Shown one piece after another: positions 24,553 to 57,552 of a stretch of 64,000 nucleotides of DNA (its first letter is position 1; each line of letters begins with the position of its first letter). The notes below the pieces were generated by a model. That model did not search any database. It was not told where the DNA came from and saw only the letters and a list, made by a program, of their open reading frames with translations. The position numbers and the translations under genes are program-made. The DNA is from Candidatus Yonathbacteria bacterium RIFCSPHIGHO2_02_FULL_44_14 (GTDB lineage Bacteria > Patescibacteriota > Minisyncoccia > Phycocordibacterales > UBA1550): contig MHUT01000011.1 in the NCBI GenBank assembly GCA_001823535.1, positions 9,864 to 73,863 on the forward strand. Direction: 5' to 3'.

Positions 24553-24553
24553 T

Positions 24554-37726: not shown

Positions 37727-38188
37727 TTAGTTGGTGACTTCACTCCACGTTGTGCTTGTTATGTCTCCATCGGTACCTAGAGCAACGACTACCTGTAAAG
37801 TACGTGTACTTGATTTCATTATCCCCTTTGCGGTGACTGTTTTTGCGGTGTCATTACCCGTCACGCTCATTTTTGCACAATCGTTACCGAGACTGCACCC
37901 GTTAGTACTAAAATCTACGGTATAGCAGTCAGTCGTTGCGCAAGTGTAACCCTTGTTACGCGCAATTCGTATTAGTGCATCGCGAGTACCAGACTCCGCA
38001 TAAAAAAGCGCTTTGTTAGATTGTATATTTCCTTGTGATACAAATGATTCTGTCAGAGAAACTGCGGTAATACCCACTGCAACCACGAGCGACATGACAC
38101 CAAGCATAATCACAGTAGGAAGCGTTGCGATACCGCTGGAAGAACATTTGATATACGACTTTTGGCATGCGCCCTTTTTGTTTGGCAT
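37727..38188 (-). CDS. minor pilin-like protein (PilX-like hydrophobic N-terminus)
   Basis: GIATLPTVIMLGVMSLVVAVGITAV N-terminal helix; last gene of pilus operon. Confidence 0.45.
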   Translation of the reverse strand: MPNKKGACQKSYIKCSSSGIATLPTVIMLGVMSLVVAVGITAVSLTESFVSQGNIQSNKALFYAESGTRDALIRIARNKGYTCATTDCYTVDFSTNGCSLGNDCAKMSVTGNDTAKTVTAKGIMKSSTRTLQVVVALGTDGDITSTTWSEVTN

Positions 38189-38214
38189 TTTATTAAATGT
38201 TAATTGTTTATCGT

Positions 38215-38736
38215 CTACCTAAAAGTAATTGTCGTACGCAGACTATCCGAGTATGACCAATCAGTGCTTAAGGAATTATAGCGCATCGTCATCGCGACTT
38301 GCATAGAAGTCGTTGTGGCATCCAATAAGGAATTATAATTTTCGAGTCGCGTAAAGGTGGGGACTTCAACAAGAACTGAATTACCTGTTGTCGTAGCAAC
38401 TACGCCATTCTCAATACGTCGTAGCGCACCCCCCAACACATCATAAACGACGGGGACTCCAGATACGGTAACACTTAGTGAACTTGAAGGAGTCCCAAGA
38501 GTTGGAGCGGAAACAGCAGAAGCATTTTTTACGTCCTGCTTGATTCGCTCAATTGCAAAGCGAATCGCACTATTCACTTCGCTCCGCGCTTCTGCTTGCC
38601 CTCGCCCCTTTGATAGGGAGATAAATGCATCGGAGATGATTACCATGAGTCCCGAAAGTATGGCAATATAGAGCAGAAGCTCAAGCAAGCTCATTCCGCG
38701 CTGGCATACTTTGTTTTTTGGAGAAAAAATTTTCAT
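38215..38736 (-). CDS. pseudopilin with prepilin-type N-terminal cleavage/methylation motif
   Basis: QRGMSLLELLLYIAILSGL; 4-nt overlap with upstream gene. Confidence 0.7.
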   Translation of the reverse strand: MKIFSPKNKVCQRGMSLLELLLYIAILSGLMVIISDAFISLSKGRGQAEARSEVNSAIRFAIERIKQDVKNASAVSAPTLGTPSSSLSVTVSGVPVVYDVLGGALRRIENGVVATTTGNSVLVEVPTFTRLENYNSLLDATTTSMQVAMTMRYNSLSTDWSYSDSLRTTITFR

Positions 38737-41693
38737 CTAATGGAAATGACGCTTGTTATTATTTGTCCGCTATCAAGCACCGCCTTGAGCTGCCAAGAAC
38801 CTGGCGACATCGTACTCGTGGAGAGATTAAAAAGGTAGTGCTGTCCGCTTGTATCATAGCGGAATTGATTTCCCGTATCTGCCACTGAGGTCGAAAGGGG
38901 TATTTCATCATTCCCAACCACGCTATCACTTATTTTTGCAACATAGAGGTATGCAAAAACCGAAGGTACCGCGTTATTATTCACATCACGCACTCCAAAT
39001 TTCACCGGCAATGTTCTTCCTTGGTTGTACACACCGCTTCCATCAGATTTAATAGGTGAAAGAAAGCCATTTGTTGCGTAGAGAACATTGAATGTACTGG
39101 TAGTAGTAGCGGTGTTGCCTTCATTATCCATCGCGACCAGTTCCAGCATATTTACTCCTGGCTTGACCATGGTTACCTGTTGTCCATTTATAACTGGATT
39201 CTCATTCAAGGTAGCGTTTAGAATTGCAATACCCGAGACATCGGTTGCATAGAATTGCGCCGTAGTGGTTGCGTTGAGGAGGTATTCACCTGAGGGGTAA
39301 ACGACTGAGATTGCGGGTGGGTCGATTTCAGTAAGACTGCTGTCGCTCTGAATAACGCGGTCAACAACACCATCTCCGTTGGTATCAATGCCTACGGTCA
39401 CCCCACGCTCTCCACGGTCAAGCGCATCCCAATCAATAAAATATTCGTGGATTTCACCCGGGGTGGCGGGGATGTTTGTGGCATAAAAAGTCCGTAAAAT
39501 ATCATTCTGTGTGAATTCAACTCGGAAACCGTATGTTCCTATTCCCGTTCCGATTACACGATATGTATACGGATTATGAGGGAAGAATATTACCCCTCCG
39601 TCTGCATCACGGTCATACCGTGAGAAAGGAATTTCTTCTCTGATTACGGAAGTTCCGTCAAAACCTGTAGCTCGCCCAAGTGAATCAATCACCTCAATTT
39701 CAACAGGACTAAACTTCTTGAACTCAATTCGGTTTGCATTTGCAAGCTTCAATTTTTCAATAAGTTGATCATTGTTTGCATAGTCAATCCCTGGGAAATA
39801 TATCGACAAATCGCGCAAAGAATTCGAGATTTGTTTCAGGTAGTTACCCGTCAATACTTTTCCATTGTATCCCCATGTGGCAAGAACGCGTTCAATATCT
39901 TGGCAGCTATATACCAATGTCCCAATCGTTAGCTGTGCATCAGGACATTTCCTGCGATACTTCTCTTGCAGTGTACGAAAACCGTCTTTGATGTTTGCAT
40001 AAATCCCCTGCAAAGCATTTGAGTAGTACTTACTTGTGGGAAAATTCGTCCGGCAATCCCCTGTTTTGGGATAATTTTTAAGAGCACTTCCCAAGCCCTT
40101 GAATCCCTCACTGGTGATTTGCATAATACCAATTCCGCCGTCTTGCGCACTGGAACAAATTTCGTTATCAAGTGTGCCTGCCGACTCGTGTCCTGCAATA
40201 GCAAGCACAAGTTCTTTAGGGTATGAAGCTCCTTGAATAAATCTTTGGAAATTATTTAAACTATCATGTCCGCCACCTCCGCCATAGAGAGAGCTTGAAG
40301 TTGCTGTCGCAGTGTAGTAAGTATCTACTGCCTGTAGGATTACGGGGGTACGGGCTTCCTTTGTTTGATATGGCATGGTGGTTGCTTTTGCATCAAGAGT
40401 TGATTGAGCATTTGCGTCATACGGAAGATATATTGTTCCCGTGCTTATCTCTCTAGCCACCATCCAGCCAATGGCACCATCAGTCACATCAACCACTCCG
40501 TACCATTGGTACCCGTCGAGTTCGATAGTTTGCCCCGTAACAGTATCAGTCGTCGTTGCGACTTTGAGCACCCAGTCGGCGGGGACAGTTTTTATAACAT
40601 CACTTGCCGGTTTGTCAGTTTGTGTTCCCGTTATTTTTGTTCCCGCTGTTTGACGGAGTTTAAAAACTCCGCCGGAATGATTAACTTGAGAAAAAAATTG
40701 AGGTAGTTGGGGACCCCCGATTGCTATTTTACTCACGGTGTTGGAATATTGGTTTGCCACCCAGACAGAGTTCGTAACATTGTCGAAGGCGATGCCATTA
40801 GGATAATTCCCGACTGAATAATCAACCTTTGTACCGGTAAATATGTCTATCTTGCTTACGGATCTGGAAAAATAGTTTGTCACCCAGATAGAGTTCGTAA
40901 CATTATCGAAGGCGATGCCAATAGGATATGCTCCGACTGAATAATCAACCTTTGTACCGGTAAATATGTCTATCTTGCTTACGGTACCAGAGCCAACATT
41001 TGCAACCCAGACAGAATTAGTAACGCTATCGAAAGCAAGGCGATATGGCGACAGCCCAACAGGATAATCAACTCTTGAGCCACTAAATATGTCTACCTTG
41101 CTTACGGTACCAGAGCCAACATTTGCAACCCAGACAGAGTTCGTAACATTATCGAAGGCGACACCAGCAGAATCAACCCCGACTGAATAATCAACCTTTG
41201 TACCGGTAAATATGTCTATCTTGCTTACGGTATAATTGTTTGCCACCCAGACAGAGTTCGTAACATTATCGAAGGCGACACCAGCAGGATACATTCCTAT
41301 AGGATAATCAACTCTCGCACCGGTAACAATATTTATTTTACTTACGGATCTGGAAAAATAGTTTGTCACCCAGATAGAGTTCGTAACACTGTCGAAGGCG
41401 ATGCCATTATTCGACACCCCAACTGAATAATCAACCTTTGTACCGGTAAATATGTCTATCTTGCTTACGGTATAGGACTGACTCCCAACCCAAATAGAGT
41501 TGGTAATATTGTCAAAGGCAACCACTGTTGGATACGATCCGACAGCATAATCAGTTCTGGTGCCTGCTGGCGAATTCACAACTTGCGCGAAGGCAATATC
41601 GACAAAAGAAAAAAACGAAAAAAGGAGAATTATAGAACCTATGGTCCTTATTAAAGAAACTTTAGAAAATCGTGATATCAAATTTTGGGACAT
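38733..41693 (-). CDS. secreted fusion protein: 7-8 YVTN-type beta-propeller repeats + SLT lytic transglycosylase domain + C-terminal Ig-like domains
   Basis: Signal peptide; ~40-aa repeats VDYSVG.YP.GIAFDNVTNSVWVAN...VSKIDIFTG x8; SLT motif IAGHESAG...SAQDGGIGIMQIT. Confidence 0.7.
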   Translation of the reverse strand: MSQNLISRFSKVSLIRTIGSIILLFSFFSFVDIAFAQVVNSPAGTRTDYAVGSYPTVVAFDNITNSIWVGSQSYTVSKIDIFTGTKVDYSVGVSNNGIAFDSVTNSIWVTNYFSRSVSKINIVTGARVDYPIGMYPAGVAFDNVTNSVWVANNYTVSKIDIFTGTKVDYSVGVDSAGVAFDNVTNSVWVANVGSGTVSKVDIFSGSRVDYPVGLSPYRLAFDSVTNSVWVANVGSGTVSKIDIFTGTKVDYSVGAYPIGIAFDNVTNSIWVTNYFSRSVSKIDIFTGTKVDYSVGNYPNGIAFDNVTNSVWVANQYSNTVSKIAIGGPQLPQFFSQVNHSGGVFKLRQTAGTKITGTQTDKPASDVIKTVPADWVLKVATTTDTVTGQTIELDGYQWYGVVDVTDGAIGWMVAREISTGTIYLPYDANAQSTLDAKATTMPYQTKEARTPVILQAVDTYYTATATSSSLYGGGGGHDSLNNFQRFIQGASYPKELVLAIAGHESAGTLDNEICSSAQDGGIGIMQITSEGFKGLGSALKNYPKTGDCRTNFPTSKYYSNALQGIYANIKDGFRTLQEKYRRKCPDAQLTIGTLVYSCQDIERVLATWGYNGKVLTGNYLKQISNSLRDLSIYFPGIDYANNDQLIEKLKLANANRIEFKKFSPVEIEVIDSLGRATGFDGTSVIREEIPFSRYDRDADGGVIFFPHNPYTYRVIGTGIGTYGFRVEFTQNDILRTFYATNIPATPGEIHEYFIDWDALDRGERGVTVGIDTNGDGVVDRVIQSDSSLTEIDPPAISVVYPSGEYLLNATTTAQFYATDVSGIAILNATLNENPVINGQQVTMVKPGVNMLELVAMDNEGNTATTTSTFNVLYATNGFLSPIKSDGSGVYNQGRTLPVKFGVRDVNNNAVPSVFAYLYVAKISDSVVGNDEIPLSTSVADTGNQFRYDTSGQHYLFNLSTSTMSPGSWQLKAVLDSGQIITSVISIR

Positions 41694-41741
41694 ATTTTAT
41701 TAAATTAGACACATTACGACATACCATTTCACATAAAACCC

Positions 41742-43388
41742 CTATGATGCATAGTTTACCACAATGCGAGTAATGGTGGGGGTAACTGTTCCTGGTGTTG
41801 TGCAGTCTCCCGAGCAAAGTTTTACCTTATACCGATAGTATCTTTGATTATTATGATACGTTGATGAGCATTTCAGCTCAACTGGTTGATCTTGATTTAC
41901 GGTATCATACCAAAAAACACTACCGCAACTCACTCCGTCTGAACCGATATAACTCCATGATCCTAAATCATTACAAGCTGGGGCATTTGTTTTTCCATTC
42001 GCGCAATCTGATGTAGCAAACTGAAATTTAACCTTTGTTCCAACGGGAAACGTTCCTTTCCACATTATTGAATTATATCCTCCACCGTCACCCGCTGTTG
42101 CCCAAAACGAATTCGAATCAAAAACGGAAGATGTAACAATTCCTGATGTATTTTTGTTTGCGACACCGCCCACAGCTGTGCCGCAGATCTTATTAGAATA
42201 CGCTGTTGAACCGCCTACGTGGGCATTCGTTAATAAAGAAGAAATGGAGGCAATGATTGCATCATACCCGGTGCAATTGTTTGCTTGATACGCTACCGAA
42301 ACAGTGCCCCCTGACGGTACGGACATACAGGCATTATTGGCGCTTGAGTAATTCGATTGATCATTTCTTTCTGCATGTGCGTTCGTCAGTCCAGACAATT
42401 TCAATACAACCGCAGAAGGTGCGGTGCATGAGTTACCAAGACCAGTAACTCCTGAACAGCAGATGACATTCCCTGTATAGTTTCCGTTTGATTGGCTGGG
42501 CAATTCCGCATGAGCATTTGTTGCGCCCGACATTCTGAGTATCGTCGTTCCACCACTGCTTGTACAAGCAGCCGCAGTGCTAACTGAGCAGGAAAGTGTT
42601 CCTGATGGTGGCGCTGCAACAGTAGCCTTGTAGGTGGCAATTAGGTCAATTGAGTCATTCGCCCCACTCAATGTGCCGGTAGCGTTATAGGTGCCGATAC
42701 TAGAAACAATCTGATACTCAGTAAAGATTGTCATATTGGAAGAAGCCGCAGAACCACTAGTACCCGCGCTAGGTAATGCAGTAAAGATTCCACCTGCGGT
42801 AAATGTAGTTGTGGGAGGGGCTTCACTGGTAAAAGACCCAAAGAGCAATTCATCTGCCTGCGCAGTCGAGGCAGTGGCAGTGGAATCAAGGGCAGTAGTA
42901 AGACTATATGTTTTTGCTGTCTGATCGAGGGCACTAGCAGTCAATAACCCAGAAAATTCAGTTGCACTCATGGCACTCGCATTAAGACTTGTGTGTGTAA
43001 CGGTAATTGTATCCCCGCTCACTAGCGCGGTAGTAATAGGTGCTGAACAAATAGAGCCTTGTTTCGAGTTATTGTAATTATACTCAACATCAGTGGTATA
43101 AGTGTTCCCTTTTGAATCAGAACATACAGGAATAAGCGGTGGAGGATTAGCCGAACTGTAGTCCGAAGCAATGCCAATGATTACCGTATTGCCGGAAGCG
43201 ACCCCTCCGGCTGGTACAGTAATCTGTAATTGCGTATGTGCGCCTTTTTGAGCTACGGCACCGATATTTTGAACTAAAGCGATCGCTGCATGGGCTTGGT
43301 TAACATCAATACAAAAAACAAATAAAATTGTTAGAATTGATCCTCGAAGGATTCTTTTACTTAAAAATTTAGTTGCAAAAAGACTCAT
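41742..43388 (-). CDS. secreted Cys/Thr/Ser-rich protein with three SG.TNAHAE repeats (possible pilus-associated adhesin)
   Basis: Signal peptide; low-complexity T/S/A/G-rich; no family recognised. Confidence 0.45.
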   Translation of the reverse strand: MSLFATKFLSKRILRGSILTILFVFCIDVNQAHAAIALVQNIGAVAQKGAHTQLQITVPAGGVASGNTVIIGIASDYSSANPPPLIPVCSDSKGNTYTTDVEYNYNNSKQGSICSAPITTALVSGDTITVTHTSLNASAMSATEFSGLLTASALDQTAKTYSLTTALDSTATASTAQADELLFGSFTSEAPPTTTFTAGGIFTALPSAGTSGSAASSNMTIFTEYQIVSSIGTYNATGTLSGANDSIDLIATYKATVAAPPSGTLSCSVSTAAACTSSGGTTILRMSGATNAHAELPSQSNGNYTGNVICCSGVTGLGNSCTAPSAVVLKLSGLTNAHAERNDQSNYSSANNACMSVPSGGTVSVAYQANNCTGYDAIIASISSLLTNAHVGGSTAYSNKICGTAVGGVANKNTSGIVTSSVFDSNSFWATAGDGGGYNSIMWKGTFPVGTKVKFQFATSDCANGKTNAPACNDLGSWSYIGSDGVSCGSVFWYDTVNQDQPVELKCSSTYHNNQRYYRYKVKLCSGDCTTPGTVTPTITRIVVNYAS

Positions 43389-43459
43389 TTTTAATTACTT
43401 CATTGCTCAAGGGGAATCAAGCAAATTTTATGATACCACCGCCCAAAATCACTATCTTT

Positions 43460-44374
43460 TTAATAAGCACTATATTTACACCAACTTCCTTCTTTTATAA
43501 CGATACCATTTGATGTCGCTGTCTCTGGCTTAAATCTCATCTGGAGTGTCCCAGCGTTTGCGCCATTACTCCAAAAACCAGAAAATCGAGCACTGTTGTT
43601 TGTCGTAGCAACTGATGCTGTGGTAACAGCACCGGTATCATCACCTACAATGGTTGTTCCTCCAACCGTCGCAGTGGTAATACCAGAAACCATTTGCGCG
43701 CTGGTGATGAGCGGTGACGATGGTCCAGTCCATCCAACACCGAGTCCTCTGGTGGTAGCACTAGCATCATATAGGATATAACATTCAATATCGTACCGTG
43801 TATTTGCACTAATCGCCCAAGAAAGACCTGTTATGTTCTGATAGGCAGTCGAGGCTGTGCTCCCGACATCGGCAGTAGTAACCACATAGGTCGCGCCACC
43901 TCCTGCGGAAGTCTGATCAGTCCCACAAGAAAAAAGGTTTGTGGTACTGTCGTAAAGAAGCTTTGCATTTGTGCCAGAACAGCTCGACGGTAATGAGCGA
44001 GCCGTGTATGCCGAAGTAGAGTCCCCAACCAACACCGCATCAGAGACAGAAGCAGTGAGACCGGTTCCTCCTTGCGCAACCGTAACGGCACTATTGCTTG
44101 TCAAAACTGACGCAGCTGCGTCAGGAAAGGTAAATGTTCTTTCTGTTGTAGGTCCAGTCACAGAAAAGAACGCTGAACCAGTACCACCATTTGCAACAGG
44201 AAGAATACCTGTCACTTGTGCTGTCAAATCAACAAGGACATCTCCAACCTCTGACCATGTGTGTCCGGGGTTTGGCGCAACCGCATTAACAACCGTGATT
44301 ACAGAAAATGCAACACCAAGGAGAAGCAGGGCTGTTAATGTTTTGTTTGGTGTAAATTTGGGGAATTTTTTCAT
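43460..44374 (-). CDS. secreted hypothetical protein
   Basis: Signal peptide MKKFPKF...LLLLGVAFSVITVVNA; T/S/A-rich. Confidence 0.45.
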   Translation of the reverse strand: MKKFPKFTPNKTLTALLLLGVAFSVITVVNAVAPNPGHTWSEVGDVLVDLTAQVTGILPVANGGTGSAFFSVTGPTTERTFTFPDAAASVLTSNSAVTVAQGGTGLTASVSDAVLVGDSTSAYTARSLPSSCSGTNAKLLYDSTTNLFSCGTDQTSAGGGATYVVTTADVGSTASTAYQNITGLSWAISANTRYDIECYILYDASATTRGLGVGWTGPSSPLITSAQMVSGITTATVGGTTIVGDDTGAVTTASVATTNNSARFSGFWSNGANAGTLQMRFKPETATSNGIVIKEGSWCKYSAY

Positions 44375-44444
44375 ATTAAAATTATGTGGCGACTGCTTAA
44401 TTGTTTCTTATATTTTACCTTGTATCAATAATGAGGGCAAGCAT

Positions 44445-45107
44445 TTATATCAACTTGAGCGTGCCTGTTGAAGTAGATACTGTGGCATCAATGGTATCGT
44501 AGGTTGTCGTACCGCACGATTGAACCGAATCCCCCGACAAACCATTCCCCACCCATCCCGACTGACTGCACACCATATTTCTCCATCGGAAAAAATATTC
44601 GGAAATTGCAACGGGGTCGGCGTTCGGCCATGAGACGGTTACGGTCGCTTTTTGAGTTGAAGGATCATCGATGTAATCTGTGGCGAGCGGTGTGCAGGTG
44701 GTACTACTTGCAATGGAACGGGTTGAATCACTACATCGATTCACATTTTCTATAATTACATAGAGTGTGTATGTTACACCGTTAAGAACAACCGTTTGGC
44801 TCCCCGTTCCCAATGTCCATTTCCCCACAGGCACAGTCGAAGTGGCGTAGTACTGCGACCCCTTTGTAAGACCGTAAATATTCTGCCACTTTTCTTCAGT
44901 AGTTCCGCGCACCGCTTCAAGCCCTTCGTTTGCAAGACCAAGCGCCACATCGCGCTCGCTCGACACTTTGTTGCTTTGCAAACTCACAAACACTGCCTCA
45001 CTTCCCGTAGATAGGATAACGGCAAGCAGAGCGATCACAATAAGAAGCTCAAGAAGGAGGGACCCGCGGTTGTACTTTAGGATATTAAATTTTAGATTGT
45101 GTCTCAT
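44445..45107 (-). CDS. pseudopilin (prepilin N-terminal motif)
   Basis: NRGSLLLELLIVIALLAVIL. Confidence 0.7.
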   Translation of the reverse strand: MRHNLKFNILKYNRGSLLLELLIVIALLAVILSTGSEAVFVSLQSNKVSSERDVALGLANEGLEAVRGTTEEKWQNIYGLTKGSQYYATSTVPVGKWTLGTGSQTVVLNGVTYTLYVIIENVNRCSDSTRSIASSTTCTPLATDYIDDPSTQKATVTVSWPNADPVAISEYFFRWRNMVCSQSGWVGNGLSGDSVQSCGTTTYDTIDATVSTSTGTLKLI

Positions 45108-45109
45108 GT

Positions 45110-45556
45110 TTAATATATTGTTCCGATGCTTGAGATTGTTGTTGTTGCGGTTGCTCCCTCTTGAGTGATACTTGTCGTAGTTGCCGCAGGTATGGTGCCA
45201 GAAATTTTATTGAAGATGACGTCTTTGTATCCTGATGCAGGGTCAGAAAATCTGATGCCGGACGATAAGGTGGTGGTGGCCGTAGTGGTAGAGTTTGTGC
45301 CGTCTGTTGAAAATGTTATGTAATAATCTCCGCTGGTATTTTTTACAAAACGCACGCCCCATTTATATCCGCTCTCGCCTATCATTGATTTCGCACGCAT
45401 TTGTTGCAAATCGCTCACAATCATTTTTGAAGCAGATTGAATTTCCATATTTTTGACAACACCACGATAGAACCCAGATCCGGTAACTGCGAGCACTGCC
45501 ATGATTGCTATCACGATGAGGAGCTCTAAAAGCGAAAATCCGCGCGAAGTATGCAT
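45110..45556 (-). CDS. pseudopilin (GspH/FimT-like)
   Basis: SRGFSLLELLIVIAIMAVLAV. Confidence 0.7.
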   Translation of the reverse strand: MHTSRGFSLLELLIVIAIMAVLAVTGSGFYRGVVKNMEIQSASKMIVSDLQQMRAKSMIGESGYKWGVRFVKNTSGDYYITFSTDGTNSTTTATTTLSSGIRFSDPASGYKDVIFNKISGTIPAATTTSITQEGATATTTISSIGTIY

Positions 45557-45559
45557 ATT

Positions 45560-46774: not shown

Positions 46775-46783
46775 AATGAAAAG

Positions 46784-48972: not shown

Positions 48973-49056
48973 TATTTTATTAGTATACCACGCAGTTAGA
49001 AAAAAATAACACCAACTGTGTACTAACTCAGTTGAAGCCAGGCTTCAACAATGGTA

Positions 49057-49719: not shown

Positions 49720-49734
49720 AAGAGCTATCCTAAC

Positions 49735-49777
49735 AAAAAAACACCCAGCCTGTCTAGACAGGCTGGGTGTTTTTAAG
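49735..49777 (-). terminator. strong rho-independent terminator/attenuator after major pilin gene
   Basis: acacccagcctg-tcta-gacaggctgggtgt flanked by A-run and T-run. Confidence 0.7.
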
Positions 49778-49790
49778 AAACTAACCTAAA

Positions 49791-50543
49791 CTAGAATAAT
49801 GCACCCGTAAGTGGTAAAAGATTCAAACTGTTACCAGATTCATACTTATCAGTATTGTCGCCGCCATCATTTGCCATTTTAGCGTCATCAACAGTGTAAG
49901 CATTACTTTCAAGCACTGCGTTCATTTCAAAGACGTATGCTGGCTTTCCCGCTCCAACACCCGCAGTAGTACCATTTTGACATCCGTAACGATACACGAG
50001 ATCAGAAGCAGTTGCAGTAGTTCCTATAGTGTTTATTGGGTCTACAGGGAAACTCGAAATTGGAGTTCCTCCCGTCAATGCTTTAAGATTTACGGGGATC
50101 CAGCCAGTGCCATCAACCTTTCCTGCTGCTGCACCCGCAGGAGAACCTGACGTGCTAACCCATGGTGTAAACGCAGAATCCGAACCTGCGGTGAGTGTCC
50201 CACCGAGTGTTGGGGTCACGTTGGCACTGTATTTGATTTTAGGAGCCGCGTTTGACGAGGTAACCCCTGCTGCAGTTGTCGATGTTGTACAAATTGCTCC
50301 AAAATTGTCGAGACTTGGTGTAGAAGATGCGGTAAGCATAATACCAAGCGCAGTCTTAACAGACTTCAAGTCCGAGATACGTTGCGCATCGCGCGCTTTC
50401 TTGAGAGTCTCTGCTGGGTTCAACATGAACACGAGAGCAATAGAAAGGATGGCAATGATTGCGATTACAATCAGGAGCTCAAGGAGAGTGAAGCCGCCCT
50501 CGCGCTTCACATCCATTTTTTTCAAATTAGTAAGTGAGATCAT
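49791..50543 (-). CDS. type IV major pilin (paralog 1)
   Basis: REGGFTLLELLIVIAIIAILS prepilin cleavage/methylation site. Confidence 0.85.
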   Translation of the reverse strand: MISLTNLKKMDVKREGGFTLLELLIVIAIIAILSIALVFMLNPAETLKKARDAQRISDLKSVKTALGIMLTASSTPSLDNFGAICTTSTTAAGVTSSNAAPKIKYSANVTPTLGGTLTAGSDSAFTPWVSTSGSPAGAAAGKVDGTGWIPVNLKALTGGTPISSFPVDPINTIGTTATASDLVYRYGCQNGTTAGVGAGKPAYVFEMNAVLESNAYTVDDAKMANDGGDNTDKYESGNSLNLLPLTGALF

Positions 50544-50570
50544 AGTGATAAAGTTATTTAATAATTACTA

Positions 50571-51287
50571 TTAGAAGTCTGTTCCTGCATCAAGAATCTT
50601 GAGGTTTGTACCTACTTCATAGAAGCTTGCATTGTTACCGCCATCAGAAGCACGTTTGTCGTCTGCTCCTGTTGTGTAAGCGGAACTCTCAAGTATAGCA
50701 TTCATCTCAAACGTAAGAGGGGTCGCTGAACATGCGTAACGGTAGAAGTAGCTTGCTGGTGAAATACCAGTAGCATAACCGTCAGTAGTACCTCCATTTC
50801 CGTTCAATGTATTTATAGGATCAACAGGAATATTCGAGATTGGTGAACCGCCAATCAAAGAATCAAAGTTTACAGGGATCCAGCCTGTTCCATCTGTAAG
50901 AGATAGGTTTGCTGCCCCTACACTCACCGCTGCAGCAGCGTATGCAGATGCACCCATGAGACCGGTATGAGTAATTGAAGTTGGTGAAGAATAATAAATC
51001 TTAGTTGGTGTAACTGGGGCAGTTAAACCAGGTGTGAGGAAACAAGGCAAGTTGTTTGTAAGACCCAAATAAGGTGTCGATGTACTCGTCAAATAAAGCC
51101 CGAGTGCTGTCTTCATTGTGCTCAGATCTGAAATACGCTGAGCATCGCGCGATTTACGAAGTGCTTCTGCAGGGTTCAAAACAAGAACAAGTGCGACTGA
51201 TAAAATTGCGATAATCGATATAACAATCAGGAGCTCTAGGAGAGTAAAACCTCCATCGCGTTCCTTTTTAAAATTCATTGAAGTCAT
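50571..51287 (-). CDS. type IV major pilin (paralog 2)
   Basis: RDGGFTLLELLIVISIIAILS; similar to the 49791 gene through the first ~70 aa. Confidence 0.85.
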   Translation of the reverse strand: MTSMNFKKERDGGFTLLELLIVISIIAILSVALVLVLNPAEALRKSRDAQRISDLSTMKTALGLYLTSTSTPYLGLTNNLPCFLTPGLTAPVTPTKIYYSSPTSITHTGLMGASAYAAAAVSVGAANLSLTDGTGWIPVNFDSLIGGSPISNIPVDPINTLNGNGGTTDGYATGISPASYFYRYACSATPLTFEMNAILESSAYTTGADDKRASDGGNNASFYEVGTNLKILDAGTDF

Positions 51288-51406
51288 GTTTATAAAATTA
51301 ATTGTAATTAACTTTTTTATTATACCAGATACTATTTAAATAACACAATGGGCTGTGGATAACTCCTCGGGAAGGAAGGCTCTCATGAACCTCGACATTT
51401 AATTCA

Positions 51407-51450
51407 CAAAAAGCTACCCTTGTAGGATTACCTGCAAGGGTAGCTTTTTG
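51407..51450. terminator. bidirectional terminator separating sensor operon from pilin operon
   Basis: aaaaagctacccttg-...-caagggtagcttttt. Confidence 0.65.
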
Positions 51451-51459
51451 ACACGCGGA

Positions 51460-51840
51460 TTATATCTCCAAATACCCTTTCACCTTATCTATTACCTCCT
51501 GAATTGGATAGTCCACCTTTACCAAATATTCATTCGCTCCAAGTGCAAGTGTACGGTCTTGGTCGCTCTTTTGGCCAAGGTTCGAGAGAATAATAACGGG
51601 AATATTTACAAGCTCGGGATTTTTTTTAATTTCCTCAAGGACCATGAAACCATCCTTTTTGGGAATCATCAGGTCAAGGATAATCAGGTCAGGCTTTTCA
51701 GCGGTAATTTTCACAACTGCCTCTTCGCCGTCGCGTGCAAGCGAAGTCGCAAGACCCTCCTTTGCAAGTTTGATTTCATATACCTTTGAGATATGCTCAT
51801 CGTCTTCGACAATCATCACTTTTTTCTTGTTTTCATTCAT
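51460..51840 (-). CDS. single-domain response regulator (CheY/PilH-like)
   Basis: MIVEDDEH...LIILDLMIPKKDGF...; paralog of the 20450 gene. Confidence 0.85.
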   Translation of the reverse strand: MNENKKKVMIVEDDEHISKVYEIKLAKEGLATSLARDGEEAVVKITAEKPDLIILDLMIPKKDGFMVLEEIKKNPELVNIPVIILSNLGQKSDQDRTLALGANEYLVKVDYPIQEVIDKVKGYLEI

Positions 51841-51846
51841 AGGAGA

Positions 51847-52233
51847 TTATGCGTAGCTTGATACTTTTTTTACAAGTGCATTAATATCGTAGTCACTTTT
51901 TACCAAATAGTCAACTATTCCCAGCTCGCGCGCGATATCTTTTGACTCTTCGCGTCCTGACACAGAACAAATAACGACTTTCATGTCTTTATATTCAGGA
52001 TTCTTACGAATCTCTGCAAGAAAATCGATTCCATTCATTCCCGGGAGCAACAAGTCGAGCCAGATAATGTCTATAGCAGAGTGTTCTGACTTAAGCACTT
52101 CAAAAGCATCCTCAGCGCGCATTACTGATATGACATGATGACCATTTTGCTCGAGCTTAAGGACAATTGCTCTATTGAGTGCCACATCATCTTCTATAAG
52201 AAGAATTGTTTTTGATATTGTATTTTCTTCCAT
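51847..52233 (-). CDS. single-domain response regulator (CheY/PilG-like)
   Basis: LLIEDDVAL...IIWLDLLLPGMNGIDF... Confidence 0.85.
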   Translation of the reverse strand: MEENTISKTILLIEDDVALNRAIVLKLEQNGHHVISVMRAEDAFEVLKSEHSAIDIIWLDLLLPGMNGIDFLAEIRKNPEYKDMKVVICSVSGREESKDIARELGIVDYLVKSDYDINALVKKVSSYA

Positions 52234-52238
52234 ATATA

Positions 52239-52640
52239 TTAGATAGATTTTTCGTACGCAGGAAAGATTGTTACTTCTTCGATAGTGATTCTGTCTTTTA
52301 TCTTGTCACGAATATTCTCGTAATCCACCACAATATCCGATGGTACGTCTCTGCTCTCTATAGATAATATCTTACCCGCAACGAGAGCGAAATTTTCTGC
52401 GTATGCTTCCATGGTGAGATGAAATATATTTGCCATGCGACGTACTTCCTCGTCTGATGATTTTATAAGTGCCGGATAAAGCTCTGTATCTTCTTTCCTT
52501 AAATGTGGCTCTAGTACCGCTTGTAATTTCTGAATAAGATTTTTTTTATTTTCTAGGTCGTTTGTCGCATCCATCGAATCGAAAATATCGCGGATTACCT
52601 GATGTTCTCCCTCGAGGGTTTTAATGAAGTCTGTGCTCAT
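52239..52640 (-). CDS. hemerythrin-like HHE cation-binding domain protein
   Basis: LEGEHQVIRDIF...LEPHLRKEDTELYPAL...TIEEVTIFPAY pattern of His/Glu ligands. Confidence 0.45.
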   Translation of the reverse strand: MSTDFIKTLEGEHQVIRDIFDSMDATNDLENKKNLIQKLQAVLEPHLRKEDTELYPALIKSSDEEVRRMANIFHLTMEAYAENFALVAGKILSIESRDVPSDIVVDYENIRDKIKDRITIEEVTIFPAYEKSI

Positions 52641-52773
52641 AATGATTTAATTATTTTTTAAATTATACTTACAACTGCAATTTTTATCTCAAGAGCATTA
52701 TATGATTATGCAAGCGTCTTTGCAACTTTCTTTTACCGTTGGTAGCAATTACGTACATGCTCCAAAAACGAAA

Positions 52774-55200
52774 TTAAAGCGGTACGGTAAAGAAAAATGT
52801 CGTCCCCTGCCCTTCAGTGCCCTCAAACCAAACCTTACCGCCCCATGACTCAACCAAATCCTTTACCAGTGCGAGACCGAGACCAGAACCGTCCGGCGCC
52901 CACGCGCGAGCATTTTCCGCACGAAAGAATTTCGAGAAGATACGCGGGCGCTGATTTTCGGGAATACCAATACCGTTGTCACGCACCATATAAACAACTT
53001 CTTTCTTTTCATTGTCCACACTCCATTTTATTTCAATAGTGCCATTCTCGTTTGAATAGCGAATCGCATTGGAAATAAGATTTAGTACCACCTGACGCAG
53101 TGTGAGCGAGTCCTGCGATACAACAACAGGGCCCATGTCTCCTGAAATTATGTTGAGCACGAGTTTCTTCTCGTCAATCTGCGGTGCAAGCTCTTTTGCA
53201 ATCTCCCCAGTAAATACATCGAGGTCTATTGGAGTCTTGATTGTTTTAATCTTCCCACTTTCAACGCGAGAGATGCCAAGCAAAAGATCTACTGTTTGAT
53301 AAAGGCGCTCGGCTCCACCGTGGACCTCGGTCAAAAAATCGCGTTGCGAAGCAGAAAGTTCGCCAGCATCTCCCGAGAGGAGCATCTCCGCATACCACCT
53401 TATAGTCGTGAGAGGAGTACGAAGCTGGTGTGATGCAACCGATATAAAACCCGACTTTGCGTCATCGAGTTCGCGATCCTTTGTCGCATCGCGGATCACA
53501 ACCACAGCCCCAGCCACCACACCATCCAAAGGTGCGACAGAAAAGACGATCGGAATCTTTTCTGTATGATTTTCTGTTGAAATAGAGAAGTCGTCATCCA
53601 GCGTCACCTCAATGGTTTTTTTGGTCAAAAATACTTCCTCGAAAGGCCACAGGGCAGGAGGTATTACTTCTTTTCTTTTTTTCCAGAAAGTAATAATGGT
53701 ACGCAGGTCTTTCCCATTGATCTCCTCCCGAGCCATACCAAACATTGTTGCCGCTACAGGGTTTATCAGCACAACGCGATAGGCACCATCGATAATGAGA
53801 AGTCCATCGCCAATTGATGAGAGAATCGTTTGCAATCGGTTTTTTTCTACCTCAAGCCTCTCTTTCGCTTGCCAAGCATCCTCGAGGAGGTTCACTTGAG
53901 CGCGACGCGACTGGTCTAGGAATTTTTCTTGTTGCTCATGCACTTTGACATCGCGCTCAAGCAGAGATGCTTCCTTTTTAATTTTCTCGTTCGCTACATT
54001 AAGTTTCTCCTGAGATGCTTGCACTGTTTCGATCATGATATTAAACGCCCGCGCGAGGTCCGCGGTTTCATCTTTTCCTGAAACTGGCGTGCGTATAGTG
54101 AGATCTCCTTTTATTGCGCAATTAAGTGCGGTAACAACCTCACTGATACGTGCCAATGGTCGACGCACAAAAAAGAAGATAATAAAGATACCCAAAACAA
54201 ATACTGCCACCGACGCCACCGCCGTACCCCGCGCAAGTGCCGTCATGGTAGAGAAGATCTCATCCTTTTGAACTTCTACGATAATAACGTCTCTTTCTTT
54301 CTGAAAACACATAGACGAGCCGATAACACGAACTCCTTGATAGTTGTCATACTCCCCATGAATTTCTCTCCCGTTATTCAAACACTCGCGCACGGGGAAC
54401 GTATCGACTTTTTGTCTCTGCGTTATATCCTGCACATAACGGGAGGGGGTAACCATGGTGCGTTCACTGTTTACCAGATAAACATCGGAAGTCTCGTAGC
54501 TTTTTAAAAACAGACCTGTCGTTAGTCTTACTGTTTCATTGTTGCTCGAAGCACCAAGGGCTTCGGCAGCCTGCGACAAGTTGGCAAAATGGATCAGGAG
54601 TATCGCGTCAAGGGGCACAAATTCTCCAGTTTTGTCTTCAGAAAATAACAACACACTCGAATGAATAAAAGGGACAGGACTCTCTCTATCCTCTATCACG
54701 ACACCGGACACGAACGCTTCGCCAAATTTCGAATTGGTCACTTCATCAAAATTGTGTGTTTTATTCCCGATTGATGTTTTTTCTATATTCTCATCCCTTC
54801 CTATGCGTTCAGGTTTTGTGGATGCAAAGATGATGCCATTACGATTAATGAGATCAACCAAGAAAATTGTTTTATCATACGGCATCTTTTTTTCGTTCAA
54901 ATAAACGCTGAATTCTTTTGCGAGCCGCGTTCGGTCAGGAGATCCCTCTGAAGCGGCAAGTATTGCTTTTGCGATACTCTGAATTTTTATATCAGACGAC
55001 CAGTCAAGAGTACGTGTCTTGATAACCTCCCTAAAGACAAGGTAGGTGCTTTCAGTTTGTTCAGCAATGATGCGGAAGTTATCGGTTGTTTGTTTTTTGA
55101 AAACTCCTCCGATGACGTATTGCGTGTAGAGAAAAATACCGAGCGTGATTACAAAGAGAAATAATCCAAAAAAGATTGCGGCTTGGGTACGTAACTTCAT
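52774..55200 (-). CDS. sensor histidine kinase, paralog of the 18041-20425 gene
   Basis: N-terminal 150 aa ~65% identical to the other kinase (MKLRT..FKKQ..EGSPDRTRLAKEF..YLNEKKMP..DKTIFL); H-box VASHQLRTPLTTIRWY; HATPase_c GSGLGLALVKDLVESWGG. Confidence 0.85.
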   Translation of the reverse strand: MKLRTQAAIFFGLFLFVITLGIFLYTQYVIGGVFKKQTTDNFRIIAEQTESTYLVFREVIKTRTLDWSSDIKIQSIAKAILAASEGSPDRTRLAKEFSVYLNEKKMPYDKTIFLVDLINRNGIIFASTKPERIGRDENIEKTSIGNKTHNFDEVTNSKFGEAFVSGVVIEDRESPVPFIHSSVLLFSEDKTGEFVPLDAILLIHFANLSQAAEALGASSNNETVRLTTGLFLKSYETSDVYLVNSERTMVTPSRYVQDITQRQKVDTFPVRECLNNGREIHGEYDNYQGVRVIGSSMCFQKERDVIIVEVQKDEIFSTMTALARGTAVASVAVFVLGIFIIFFFVRRPLARISEVVTALNCAIKGDLTIRTPVSGKDETADLARAFNIMIETVQASQEKLNVANEKIKKEASLLERDVKVHEQQEKFLDQSRRAQVNLLEDAWQAKERLEVEKNRLQTILSSIGDGLLIIDGAYRVVLINPVAATMFGMAREEINGKDLRTIITFWKKRKEVIPPALWPFEEVFLTKKTIEVTLDDDFSISTENHTEKIPIVFSVAPLDGVVAGAVVVIRDATKDRELDDAKSGFISVASHQLRTPLTTIRWYAEMLLSGDAGELSASQRDFLTEVHGGAERLYQTVDLLLGISRVESGKIKTIKTPIDLDVFTGEIAKELAPQIDEKKLVLNIISGDMGPVVVSQDSLTLRQVVLNLISNAIRYSNENGTIEIKWSVDNEKKEVVYMVRDNGIGIPENQRPRIFSKFFRAENARAWAPDGSGLGLALVKDLVESWGGKVWFEGTEGQGTTFFFTVPL

Positions 55201-55502
55201 AGTGTGTACTTTGTTTGCAAATAGTATAGCATGCAAATAAATATAAGACACCTGTGGGAAAACCACAGGTGTCTTATATTAGCTCCTCGGCTCGGAAATG
55301 AAAAAATATTTTTTCATTTCCCTCGCTCTACGTCGCTAATAACTTGGCGGGCCCATCCGCCTACTTTTGCATTATTGCGCGGTGTTTTTTAATATTTTTG
55401 CTTAAAATATTATGCATCAGCAAAAGAGATTGCCTTTTGTGTGGATATGCAACAAAAAACACTATGCAAAAAGTAGGTGTGGGGGTATACTACTTGGATA
55501 GA

Positions 55503-56966
55503 ATGAACATTTTAAATCTTCTTAAAAATGAAAATCGTGTCGCGGGAATCGAAATTAGTGATTCCGTAGTTCGTGTTGCATTTTTTCGTCTGCAAAAAAA
55601 GAAACGACTCACATCGAAAACAAGCACTGAGGAAGGTAAGCTTGTTCTCATTGAAGAGCCCATTGCCGCGAATATTATTCAGGATGGCATCATTGTTGAT
55701 GTCGACCTCCTTGGAAAAACACTCGGGAGCATTTGGAAGAAAGCAGCGCTTGATACCAATTATGCCATCATCGCTATCCCCGACGATAAAATTTACTCAA
55801 GAATTTTTTCGTTTCCAAAATCTGTCGCTGAAACGCGCCTTACCGAAGCAATGCGTCTCGCAATCGGTTATCAACTTCCCATGAAAACCGACGATGTGTA
55901 TCTCGACTGGGAGAGAACCACTGGCACTGCAGGCACCAATGAAATTCTTCTTTCCACCATCCCTCGCGCTGTTGCCGAGGGGTATGTTCAAGCGCTCGAA
56001 CAAGCGGGGATAAAAACACTTGCGCTCGAAAGCCATCTTGCAGCTATTGCACGGGCGATAAAACTTACACATGGGGAGATGACACTCTTTTCAAAAAAAA
56101 CACCCGACGGAACTACTATTTTTGCGCTCAAAGATAGAATTCTGCGATTTTCGCGCACTTTTCCTCTCCGTTTTGTTCCCGAAGAACAAATCCCAAATGA
56201 AATTAAAAAAATCAAATCGGCGCTCGCGACAGACACAAACGAGCATATTATGGAACAAGATCTCCTTGACGCGACAGTCTGCGATGAATATGCGGCCCGC
56301 GCTGAGATTACCGATCCAAAATCAAAGTGGCTCGTTGCTCTAGGTGCTGCTATCCGCAGCAAAATCCCCGAAGGCAGCGACAATCTCATAAGCCTCCTTC
56401 CTGTGGGGACAGAGGAGGCTTATTCGTACCAGCGCGCAACGACATTCATAGTCGTTATGAGAAATCTAATCATTAGTGTTTCTCTATTTTTTATTGTGGC
56501 ATATCTTGCGACATATCTTTTTATGTTCTCATTGTCGAAAAACACAACAGAGCGAATCACAACACTATCAGCATCCGCGGTTCCTCCCGAGCTTGCTGAA
56601 AAAGAAGGTCAGATTAGCGACATCAACTCCCTTACCGAAACAAGCGCGACATTTCTTGCACAAATGCCCGTGTGGAGCAATGTCCTTACCGAACTAGTCG
56701 CTCGCACTCCGGAAGGAATCACCATTTCTATGTTTTCCGGCCCTTTTTTCAATGAAAAATTTTCTCTTACGGGCGTAGCGACAAACCGCATGACTTTAAA
56801 TAATTACAAAAAAATCCTTCAAGACTCGCCGATGCTTTCCGAAGTTGAACTCCCTTTGACTAATCTCGAGCAGAAAGGGGAGGTTCCTTTCGCGATATCA
56901 TTTCGCCTGAAGGACCCCGGTGCGCTATACTATACTCAAGTGAACAAACAGGAGGAAAAGATATAA
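55503..56966 (+). CDS. PilM-like actin-fold pilus assembly protein fused to a PilN-like TM/periplasmic region
   Basis: VAGIEISDSVVRVAFF (PilM N-terminus), AIIAIPDDKIY...LTEAMRLAIGYQLP, then TM IISVSLFFIVAYLATYLFMF; start uncertain (alternatives 55344, 55464). Confidence 0.55.
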   Translation: MNILNLLKNENRVAGIEISDSVVRVAFFRLQKKKRLTSKTSTEEGKLVLIEEPIAANIIQDGIIVDVDLLGKTLGSIWKKAALDTNYAIIAIPDDKIYSRIFSFPKSVAETRLTEAMRLAIGYQLPMKTDDVYLDWERTTGTAGTNEILLSTIPRAVAEGYVQALEQAGIKTLALESHLAAIARAIKLTHGEMTLFSKKTPDGTTIFALKDRILRFSRTFPLRFVPEEQIPNEIKKIKSALATDTNEHIMEQDLLDATVCDEYAARAEITDPKSKWLVALGAAIRSKIPEGSDNLISLLPVGTEEAYSYQRATTFIVVMRNLIISVSLFFIVAYLATYLFMFSLSKNTTERITTLSASAVPPELAEKEGQISDINSLTETSATFLAQMPVWSNVLTELVARTPEGITISMFSGPFFNEKFSLTGVATNRMTLNNYKKILQDSPMLSEVELPLTNLEQKGEVPFAISFRLKDPGALYYTQVNKQEEKI

Positions 56967-56994
56967 TACTCTAGCAATCAAACACACTGACACC

Positions 56995-57552
56995 ATGTTC
57001 ACTACAAAAAATCTTTTTACACTCGTCACCAAATATATTCTTATCGCTTTTGCGGTTGTTCTTTTTACGTCGGGAGTTGTATTCTTTCTTTCTGGGCAAA
57101 TCACCAAAGTATCGAACAGAACTGCAAAGGACCGCCAACTTGTCACAATGCTAAGCGAGCGAACAGCTGTTCTTTCTAATTTGAAACACGACACCGATAT
57201 CATCGGAGCAAACGAATCAACCATTAAACAAGCATTTATCCCATCCAATAACATTCTCGAGTTTGTCGCTGCCTTCGAAAACCTAGCTTCAAAAAACGGT
57301 CTCACGCAAGCATTTCATTTCTCATCACCAACGACAATGGATACAGGGTCCCCAATCACCCTCACAACGATTGGCTATCAAAACAATATCTCGTCAAATG
57401 TCTCTGTATTCATTAACTATCTCAAAGATTTTGAGCGGCTTCCCTATTTTACCAAAATTGACTCTATAAATATTTCTTCTGGCAAGGAAGGCTGGTACGG
57501 CACGGCAGCGATATCCTTCAGCGCGACTATCATCGCACGCTCGACACAATAA
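56995..57552 (+). CDS. PilO-like pilus assembly protein (N-terminal TM + periplasmic domain)
   Basis: TM LIAFAVVLFTSGVVFFL; follows the pilM/N-like gene. Confidence 0.4.
   Translation: MFTTKNLFTLVTKYILIAFAVVLFTSGVVFFLSGQITKVSNRTAKDRQLVTMLSERTAVLSNLKHDTDIIGANESTIKQAFIPSNNILEFVAAFENLASKNGLTQAFHFSSPTTMDTGSPITLTTIGYQNNISSNVSVFINYLKDFERLPYFTKIDSINISSGKEGWYGTAAISFSATIIARSTQ

Follow-up and report, generated by a model that had tools for sequence, protein, structure and literature searches.

A secretin-less type IV pilus locus of Candidatus Yonathbacteria, with a neighbouring kinase-receiver unit and a propeller protein that carries a divergent SLT-type domain

How ultra-small Candidate Phyla Radiation bacteria (CPR, Patescibacteria) recognise, attach to and breach their hosts is an open question, and to our knowledge type IV pili are the only appendage tied experimentally to host contact in this group, in oral Saccharibacteria only. 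Type IV pilus genes (PilB, PilT, PilC, PilM/N/O, PilD and pilins) are widespread and co-localised in CPR genomes, which are without PilQ and belong to cells with no outer membrane (PMC6744442). In Nanosynbacter lyticus TM7x, the pilin-locus protein PilX2 carries a seven-blade RCC1 propeller and a non-canonical signal peptide; it is a candidate host adhesin, is needed for efficient host binding and has been compared with PilY1 (PMC11623550). PilY1 and the minor pilins prime and tip the pilus (PMC7541494). Here a type IV pilus locus is described from a stretch of 64,000 nucleotides of Candidatus Yonathbacteria bacterium RIFCSPHIGHO2_02_FULL_44_14 (contig MHUT01000011.1), called the window below. 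The locus belongs to the Paceibacteria, a group much larger than the Saccharibacteria and uncultured, and it offers three candidates: a modular adhesin-hydrolase, a histidine kinase with two receivers, and a membrane protein encoded where a prepilin peptidase often sits.

The locus is read as the core type IV pilus cluster of Candidatus Yonathbacteria, in the secretin-less form typical of the Patescibacteria, with a kinase-receiver unit controlling the pilus and a propeller protein, BP986, acting as adhesin and hydrolase at its tip; taken jointly, these statements are held to be somewhat better than evenly balanced. The pilus operon occupies 13.5 kb of the minus strand from 51287 down to 37727, has its own predicted promoter and runs pilA1, pilA2, M220, pilB, a 23S_rRNA_IVP-family gene (IVP gene) and pilC, followed by four minor-pilin genes flanking genes for three secreted non-pilin proteins, S304, S548 and BP986. 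The kinase unit is also on the minus strand, and a divergent plus-strand unit holds the genes for a PilM-PilN fusion, a PilO-like protein and a LytR_C protein (Table 1). An earlier note on this DNA, made from its letters alone, had named most of these genes. Its open reading frames (ORFs) are all present in an ORF map of the window, and its calls for PilB, PilC, PilM/N, the pilins, the kinase, the receivers, the hemerythrin and LytR_C are borne out by Pfam searches; the genes that it listed for the operon are there, but M220 and the IVP gene had been overlooked. Its view of the locus as a dedicated surface-filament machine, here of the type IV kind, in an organism with a reduced genome is supported; that organism is Candidatus Yonathbacteria. 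The type IV pilus locus itself is of a known kind; the kinase-receiver linkage and the propeller-hydrolase in the minor-pilin slot go further.

For the Pfam scans, ORFs of 110 aa or more were taken as candidates, except long ones nested on the strand opposite called genes, and the region surveyed came to 84 kb, the 64-kb window plus 10 kb past each end on the source contigs. Comparison loci were close PilC relatives, one genome per species, and all window proteins were mapped onto each. Contigs identical to the window sequence derive from Rifle aquifer metagenomes, and a Joint Genome Institute metagenome contig (L001) is nucleotide-identical to it over 22,961 nt.

In gene content the locus resembles T4P-1 and T4P-2 of TM7x (PMC11623550) and the general CPR set (PMC6744442), with PilB, PilC, PilM/N, a candidate PilO and class III pilins and no secretin. 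The missing secretin is expected, because CPR bacteria have no outer membrane (PMC6744442). As in TM7x, a propeller protein is encoded among the minor pilins; PilX2 is of the RCC1 type, and so are two relatives of BP986 (P0010 and P0014). Unlike in TM7x, the propeller protein here also bears a predicted peptidoglycan hydrolase domain and has PxKF at its C-terminus, the pilins have a kinase/receiver unit fixed beside them, PilM and PilN are fused, and there is an extra clade-specific membrane protein, M220. The first TM7x locus has PilD and PilT, whereas neither was found here within 84 kb. The absence of PilD, PilT and a secretin from the window, remarked on earlier, thus stands and extends to 10 kb beyond each end: Pfam searches of this region gave no Peptidase_A24 (prepilin peptidase), no secretin and no PilT, with just one T2SSE protein in all, and the 10 kb past each window end hold housekeeping genes only. 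PilD is common in CPR (PMC6744442).

The kinase-receiver unit encodes an 808-aa sensor histidine kinase (HK), a hemerythrin-like protein and two single-domain receivers, RR1 and RR2. The kinase is ordered as a transmembrane (TM) segment, a ~290-aa extracytoplasmic domain, a second TM segment, HAMP, PAS, HisKA and HATPase_c, and the acidic pocket, phospho-acceptor Asp, Ser/Thr and Lys are readable in RR1. The unit is closed by an intrinsic terminator, which had been pointed out before and is real; the 176-nt intergenic region that bears it folds at -49 kcal/mol (z = -5.3). Since this terminator is followed by an extended -10 element 5' of pilA1, the kinase/receiver genes and the pilus operon are separate transcription units. 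The order HK-RR-RR-pilin is kept in all eight related species with upstream sequence (L013, L014, L016-L020 and L022). In full, these loci have pilMN and then pilO leading away on one side, and HK, RR1, RR2, pilA1, pilA2, (M220), pilB, pilC and two minor-pilin genes following one another in the opposite direction; their HK is just 52-56% identical to that of the window, with PilC at 78-84%. In the more distant L008 (PilC 61%) pilMN directly abuts pilA, and genes for a receiver, a dCache-HAMP protein, a hemerythrin, a solute-binding protein, a kinase and a receiver lie at the opposite end of the operon. Because adjacency survives both the divergence of HK and the rearrangement in L008, a functional link between kinase and pilus can be argued, and the case is stronger than in the earlier note, which had only the adjacency in the window to go on. 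From these gene-order comparisons, the conserved HK with its two receivers is likely to be a control input for the pilus.

The two CheY-like single-domain receivers beside pilus genes recall PilG/PilH, and a membrane sensor kinase at pilus genes recalls PilS. Unlike in the Pil-Chp system, the kinase is a HisKA transmembrane protein and not of the CheA type (ChpA), and there is no methyl-accepting chemotaxis protein (MCP), CheW, CheR or CheB, CheW and MCP domains being absent from the whole window by Pfam; unlike in PilS-PilR, there is no NtrC-type DNA-binding regulator. The "PilG/PilH-type control" once suggested for this locus is therefore an analogy. Control by O2, NO or iron through the hemerythrin, suggested along with it, is not a conserved feature. 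The hemerythrin protein has a reduced ligand set of three His as read from sequence, and its gene was detected beside the kinase in just two other loci, L016 alone among close relatives (by sequence) and the distant L008 (by Pfam); L013, L014, L018 and L020 leave no space for such a gene. At most, redox or iron sensing would thus be a lineage-specific add-on.

The two-component module is indeed duplicated, as had been claimed. In the paralogous pair (Table 1), the kinase (17990-20425) is 39% identical to the pilus-linked HK over its full length, and the receiver (20450-20842) is 49% identical to RR2. Directly after this pair lies an IS200-like ORF (20923-21661, minus strand; weak Y1_Tnp match), in and around which a 32-nt palindrome (CAACTTGGAGGTTGAGCCTCCAAGTTG) occurs in four copies.

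BP986 is composed of a Sec signal, a seven-blade YVTN-type propeller, an intervening domain, a divergent SLT domain with Glu503, a beta-sandwich, an OmpL47/Ig-like domain and a PxKF domain, in that order. The Sec-type signal, read from sequence, ends ...AFA/Q; the seven blades of ~41 aa correspond to 123-nt tandem repeats and give weak YVTN/YncE matches (NCBIfam), and the PxKF domain scores 47.6 bits against an NCBIfam cut-off of 35. With Pfam SLT, BP986 scores 15.9 bits (E 0.0098) and the excised domain 19.6 bits (0.00069), against a cut-off of 21.3. At the level of the family, 11 of 18 diverse BP986 relatives match Pfam SLT (best 4.7e-6) and two match Lysozyme_like. Glu503, in an E-S/T motif, is invariant in the 18 members, as are the G and Q of G-x-G-I-M-Q and the Y of YNG, the N-G of which is at least 90% conserved. 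The top PDB profile matches are Slt70 and EmtA, with the QES...GLMQ region and the catalytic Glu aligned (E about 0.5); a profile of 11 close homologs of the domain found no PDB match, and it was the more diverse alignment that did. BP986 shares the ES, G-x-MQ and YNG motifs with the family 1 lytic transglycosylases Slt70 and EmtA/MltE; unlike in Slt70 and EmtA, its domain is very divergent, is embedded in a 986-aa multidomain surface protein and constitutes a distinct family. On the strength of these profile and motif matches, it is accepted that BP986 carries a divergent SLT domain with a predicted intact catalytic Glu, and the YVTN-propeller/SLT fusion seen by the earlier note is real, given the seven-blade repeats and the family-level matches and motifs. 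An exhaustive search places ~227 representative clusters in the family of this SLT-type domain, and its members are Patescibacteria proteins wherever their origin or gene neighbourhood was looked into. An SH3b domain suspected by eye at residues ~336-440 was dropped, having no Pfam support there or in eight relatives.

Homologs of BP986 are conserved over the C-terminal ~650 aa, and carry an N-terminal propeller of YVTN, NHL, RCC1 (1e-62) or SBBP type. In L009/L020 the same slot holds a protein with the same C-terminus and Peptidase_M23 (8.8e-20) in place of SLT. Wherever a BP986-type gene has both flanks readable (window, L004, L006, L008, L009/L020 and L094), its place is between the second minor-pilin gene and the third, next to a gene whose product has the C-terminal ~130 aa in common with S548. 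The same neighbours are found in L093, where the sequence ends before the minor pilins, which is compatible with this arrangement. Complete pilus operons without any BP986-like gene are found in L017 and L018, and the hydrolase is thus not needed to build the pilus. Apart from this, the content of the slot between the minor pilins varies greatly: secreted proteins of 1,000-2,100 aa that end in ...TYSYTP, beta-lactamase-like proteins and others are encoded there. In a second assembly of the same population (P0001), the BP986 copy has 947 aa, exactly one blade fewer, and is identical in the rest; this may reflect strain-level variation or repeat collapse in assembly.

Four minor pilins, one of them without Glu5, recall PilY1 with FimU/PilVWX of Pseudomonas and Myxococcus (PMC7541494, PMC11525922). 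Further points of likeness to PilY1 are that a large Sec-exported beta-propeller protein is encoded among the minor pilins, and that one half of it is conserved and the other variable. The polarity is reversed, however, since in BP986 the variable propeller is N-terminal and the conserved part C-terminal. BP986 also differs from PilY1 in its hydrolase domain and in having no PilY1/PilC domain detectable with Pfam or NCBIfam, its propeller being N-terminal and of YVTN/YncE type. No PilY1 with a hydrolase domain is known to us. By comparison with these systems, BP986 is most likely a PilY1/PilX2-like pilus-associated adhesin-hydrolase, the head of which is exchanged between species.

In the mechanism proposed, the kinase would phosphorylate both receivers. 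As these have no DNA-binding domain, they would work through protein contact with the pilus motor or platform, or else influence expression indirectly. The four minor pilins would, like those of other type IV pili, prime assembly and come to lie at the tip, and BP986 would travel with the tip complex like PilY1 or PilX2 of TM7x. Its conserved C-terminal two-thirds may be a docking scaffold and its exchangeable N-terminal propeller a receptor-binding head, and the lytic transglycosylase would cut peptidoglycan at the contact site, most likely in the host cell wall. That the host wall and not the cell's own is the target, we infer from the dispensability of the protein in sister species, the swap of glycosidase for endopeptidase and the fast-changing head. 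If the hydrolase does cut the host wall, pilus adhesion would be linked to host wall damage; otherwise, the locus is an ordinary CPR pilus cluster. The swapping of head and enzyme between species suggests determinants of host specificity. It is a bolder proposition, and one held to be unlikely, that the BP986 family forms an unrecognised class of pilus-delivered wall hydrolases, in which an episymbiotic CPR bacterium would carry a swappable head and an SLT or M23 enzyme at the pilus tip, under the control of a dedicated kinase with two receivers, and pilus binding would breach the host wall locally and so start attachment or feeding.

Several observations count against this account as a whole. 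The SLT score of BP986 alone is under the Pfam cut-off, and the PDB profile matches of the domain are not significant by themselves. The association of BP986 with the pilus is read from gene position, the protein having an ordinary Sec signal and no PilY1 domain. Relatives of S304 and S548 also occur in clusters without nearby pilus genes, so that co-location need not mean physical association. The missing PilD and PilT leave processing and retraction unaccounted for, and the terminator splits receivers and pilins into separate transcripts.

Other readings of the same genes have to be set against this one. An SLT-type domain with an intact catalytic Glu, encoded in a pilus operon, might instead open the cell's own peptidoglycan for passage of the pilus, as a machine-dedicated space-maker. 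Such a role is ascribed to small SLT proteins encoded in the gene clusters of type IVb pili and of type III and type IV secretion, with BfpH, R64 PilT and VirB1 as precedents. CPR bacteria also have a wall but no secretin (PMC6744442). The complete sister operons L017 and L018 have no such protein, however, the enzyme is replaced by an M23 endopeptidase in L009, and a large and rapidly exchanged propeller, with a one-blade difference between assemblies, has the traits of receptor binding rather than housekeeping, which makes a role in the cell's own wall unlikely. The machine could also be a pseudopilus like that of type II secretion, with the three secreted proteins as cargo pushed through the wall or S-layer. 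The best, though weak, matches of the minor pilins are to GspH/XpsH, GspJ and ComG-type pseudopilins, PilM and PilN are fused as in GspL, PilT was not found within 84 kb, and the cargo-like genes vary greatly from species to species. The large size of the two major pilins (238 and 250 aa) and their conservation as distinct orthologs nevertheless suit long filaments; CPR pili have been seen by microscopy, and genetics links those of TM7x to host binding and twitching (PMC11623550); and there is no outer membrane to cross (PMC6744442), so that a secretion machine is very unlikely.

The link between kinase and pilus is open to a different objection, that the adjacency is merely the inherited gene order of a narrow clade and the unit controls something else. 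The strong terminator and separate promoter that divide the units would fit this, as would receivers without an output domain or known partner, the close relationship of seven of the eight loci (PilC 81-84%, with L020 at 78%) and the paralogous HK-RR pair that has no pilus genes beside it. It is considered rather unlikely, as the order is kept in eight of eight loci while HK falls to 52-56% identity, and as the set in L008 is adjacent at the opposite operon end, which points to selection for proximity. Quite unlikely, finally, is a locus that is mainly a DNA-uptake (competence) pilus feeding a nucleotide-auxotrophic cell. An enrichment of competence and pilus genes is described for CPR genomes (PMC6744442), and several minor pilins have weak ComGD/ComGE matches, but no ComEA, ComEC or DprA gene was found in the 84 kb surveyed, and adhesin-like and wall-hydrolase modules are not required for DNA uptake. 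Roles in DNA uptake and in host attachment are compatible and not mutually exclusive.

Table 1. Features of the pilus locus and of the paralogous kinase-receiver pair, with positions counted from the first letter of the window; a slash marks the end of a pilin leader.
Feature	Position	Strand	Evidence and remarks
Membrane-anchored LytR_C protein, last gene of the pilMN-pilO unit	57559-58164	+	Pfam LytR_C 1.9e-10
PilO-like protein, 185 aa, N-terminal TM segment	56995-57552	+	Position and synteny
PilM-PilN fusion, 500 aa, GspL-like architecture	55464-56966	+	Pfam PilM_2 6.3e-12, PilN 9.1e-6
Hairpin repeat element, upstream copy (TTATTAGCGACGTAGA...GAGCCGAGGAGCTAATA)	55277-55342	-	z = -5.3
Sensor histidine kinase, 808 aa, start ATG 55200	52774-55200	-	Pfam HAMP-PAS-HisKA-HATPase_c
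Hemerythrin/HHE-domain protein	52239-52640	-	Pfam Hemerythrin 1.9e-11, 45 bits against cut-off 25.3
Single-domain receiver RR1	51847-52233	-	Pfam Response_reg 5.2e-19
Single-domain receiver RR2	51460-51840	-	Pfam Response_reg 1.9e-21; 76-86% identity in relatives
Intrinsic terminator closing the kinase/receiver unit	51407-51450	-	16-bp stem and U-run
Extended -10 TGgTATAAT, 5' of pilA1	51319-51327	-	Consensus match
PilA1 major pilin	50571-51287	-	Pfam N_methyl 3.7e-7; leader ...RDGG/FTLLE
PilA2 major pilin	49791-50543	-	Pfam N_methyl 1.2e-7
M220, 220-aa polytopic membrane protein of ~6 helices, clade-restricted	49057-49719	-	
PilB assembly ATPase	47257-48972	-	Pfam T2SSE 3e-127; N-terminal MshEN domain 1.4e-5
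IVP gene (23S_rRNA_IVP/TIGR02436 four-helix bundle, Avd-like), between pilB and pilC	46827-47213	-	Pfam 3.4e-23, NCBIfam 6.4e-22
PilC platform protein	45560-46774	-	Pfam T2SSF 1.6e-59, two repeats
First minor pilin, GspH/FimT/ComGD-like	45110-45556	-	N_methyl 8e-8; leader MHTSRG/FSLLE
Second minor pilin	44445-45107	-	Leader ...YNRG/SLLLE; no Pfam match; weak NCBIfam ComGE
S304, secreted, Thr/Gly-rich, variable cargo	43460-44374	-	Conserved mature N-terminus APNPGH
S548, secreted, Cys-rich	41742-43388	-	Threefold TNAHxE repeat domain, residues 262-410
BP986	38733-41693	-	Sec signal, propeller, SLT-type domain, PxKF
Third minor pilin	38215-38736	-	Leader ...CQRG/MSLLE; Pfam N_methyl 0.0017, below cut-off
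Fourth minor pilin, GspK/PilX-like, no Glu5	37727-38188	-	Leader ...SSSG/IATLP; weak PilX_N 0.0085
Hairpin repeat element, downstream copy	37604-37696	-	Direct orientation with 55277-55342
Paralogous kinase and single-domain receiver	17990-20842	+	Pfam; no pilus genes adjoining

Among the motor and alignment proteins, the Walker A motif GPTGHGKTT and a CxxC...CxxC tetracysteine are readable in PilB, and by gene call PilC more likely starts at ATG 46774 than at TTG 46801. PilO is a candidate assignment: homologs follow pilMN in L008, L018 and L020, but there is no Pfam, NCBIfam or PDB match. The LytR_C gene also has a homolog that adjoins pilO in L020.

The major pilins PilA1 (238 aa) and PilA2 (250 aa) are 46% identical; orthologs of PilA1 in relatives are 61-71% identical to it, and PilA2 is kept as a separate set of orthologs. 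A class III leader (G-1, hydrophobic +1, E+5) is readable in six of the seven pilin-like proteins of the window, the exception being the fourth minor pilin, and N_methyl is above cut-off in three proteins of the operon (PilA1, PilA2 and the first minor pilin). The first minor pilin also matches NCBIfam XpsH (3.5e-8) and GspH (2.5e-6), in its N-terminal part only, and the third scores 16.8 bits with NCBIfam IV_pilin_GFxxxE (cut-off 16.3). The second is kept in all relatives mapped, and the fourth is the final operon gene in relatives too. The remaining pilin-like protein is an orphan (12711-13289, minus strand) with a T2SSG match and the leader G/FTLIE, 25 kb from the main pilus locus; a 232-aa protein encoded beside it (11994-12692, minus strand) has no family match.

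M220 follows the pilin genes in 11 of the 12 loci with coverage, and its family is restricted to Paceibacteria and has no Pfam domain. The structure model is confident, with a predicted local distance difference test (pLDDT) score of 91.7. The family consensus F-x-E-G-D-I-x-x-I-x-L-A-x-L-I-x-G-W resembles the GxGD region of A24 peptidases such as PilD and FlaK (G-x-G-D-x-K-L-L-x-A-x-G-x-W-x-G-W), the points of likeness being the GD, the ~6 helices and the position of the gene after the pilins. Unlike A24, the M220 family is without a second conserved Asp, only one Asp being at least 90% conserved. Alignment with hhalign places the GD on that of E. coli GspO, with negligible probability; Foldseek and hidden Markov model (HMM) comparisons of M220 with A24 gave nothing significant, and one of 24 members touches Peptidase_A24, at E 0.021. 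In this genome the Asp of the GD is Gly. The same is true of L001, which gives weak independent support because that contig is nucleotide-identical to the window over the stretch noted above. With no Asp pair and no significant fold or HMM comparison, M220 cannot be called a prepilin peptidase. The family may have descended from GxGD prepilin peptidases, lost catalysis and become a pilin-handling factor. A perfect 21-nt palindrome (GTTGAAGCCAGGCTTCAACAA) occurs twice here, at 49160-49180 inside the 3' end of M220 and at 49031-49051 in the gap before pilB, and the pair may be an attenuator between pilin and motor genes.

S304 and S548 had been described as two secreted Cys/Thr-rich proteins of the operon. 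They are in the operon, but belong to families that are CPR-wide and also found outside pilus loci. S304 has no Pfam, NCBIfam, PHROG or PDB match, and homologs of it occur in L006 and, away from pilus genes, in clusters of Kaiserbacteria and Magasanikbacteria. Its GGTG motifs had brought phage tail-fibre-like proteins to mind, an assignment rejected for lack of PHROG, Pfam or PDB support. S548 has 251 homologs, and its TNAHxE repeat domain is spread over many CPR classes; its C-terminal ~130 aa are conserved beside the last minor pilins. The AlphaFold2 model of S548 is confident only for residues 260-410, the Cys-rich repeat domain (pLDDT > 90), and Foldseek found no PDB match to its fold at E <= 0.001. 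S548 has a 100% identical counterpart at NCBI, a protein assigned to Candidatus Yonathbacteria bacterium RIFCSPHIGHO2_01_FULL. From the distribution of their homologs, S304 and S548 appear to be CPR surface-protein families recruited into the operon, and not pilus-specific parts. A DsbA-like thioredoxin-fold protein encoded at 63242-63958 (plus strand) could bear on the Cys-rich proteins of the operon; one family of thiol-disulfide oxidoreductases is reported to be enriched in CPR and may be required for pilins to fold (PMC6744442).

In L011 (3807-12806, Kaiserbacteria) and L012 (716-10354, Magasanikbacteria), S304-like and S548-like proteins are encoded together with proteins ending in ...TYVATA(T/N)F and with dockerin/cohesin-like proteins, with no pilus genes near; these conserved clusters may represent a set of CPR surface-structure genes that has not been described. 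At 21721-26227 (plus strand) the window encodes two large surface proteins that have InlB B-repeat, Big_6 and Big_13 domains and a weak dockerin match, and the dockerin/cohesin-like proteins that accompany the S304/S548 homologs in L011 and L012 resemble them. A Beta-lactamase2-domain protein of ~316 aa, not present in the window, recurs in related pilus operons, in the variable slot that the minor pilins enclose, and at other places beside S548-like genes (Pfam match in L006, L012, L093 and L094; in L017 and L018 assigned from size and end-sequence similarity).

The IVP gene is found in the pilB-pilC gap or the next gap in seven relatives and is absent in seven others. As the gene is Avd-like, a diversity-generating retroelement acting on the Thr/Cys-rich proteins was considered and rejected: Pfam found no reverse transcriptase in the window ORFs scanned or in the 10 kb past either end, and there is no long direct repeat pair in the window matching a template and variable repeat. 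After the IVP gene (flank 46775-46826) lies a 14-nt tandem repeat (GACAATTAACATTT, 2.2 copies, 46783-46813), and the 42-nt stretch that holds it also matches 26298-26339.

The two hairpin repeat copies bracket the whole block from the kinase to the last pilin, with a partial third copy at 37482-37497. There are no further full copies in the 64 kb, and an exact-match search gave none in the loci of related species. They were considered as the ends of a mobile cassette, and this was rejected; because related loci keep the gene order yet lack the repeats, a recent insertion of the block is unlikely. The region after the operon (37375-37600) has strong GC-rich hairpins (z -3.8 to -4.3) and a 67-nt direct repeat (37387-37453 and 37517-37583, 82% identical), and among these hairpins is the one good terminator-like site that follows the operon, at 37520-37541.

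The minus strand at 26323-27510 encodes a protein of 395 aa that has a clear SET (lysine methyltransferase) domain (3.7e-24); L006 likewise has a SET-domain gene near its pilus locus. An Rfam search of the whole window gave one tRNA and nothing else. A tRNA-Asn(GTT) gene lies at 11713-11785, and 5' of it (region 11508-11785) are two near-identical 99-nt tandem units that begin with the same tRNA 5' half (GCGGTAGCTCAGTGG) and may have been left behind by an integration or a duplication at the tRNA.

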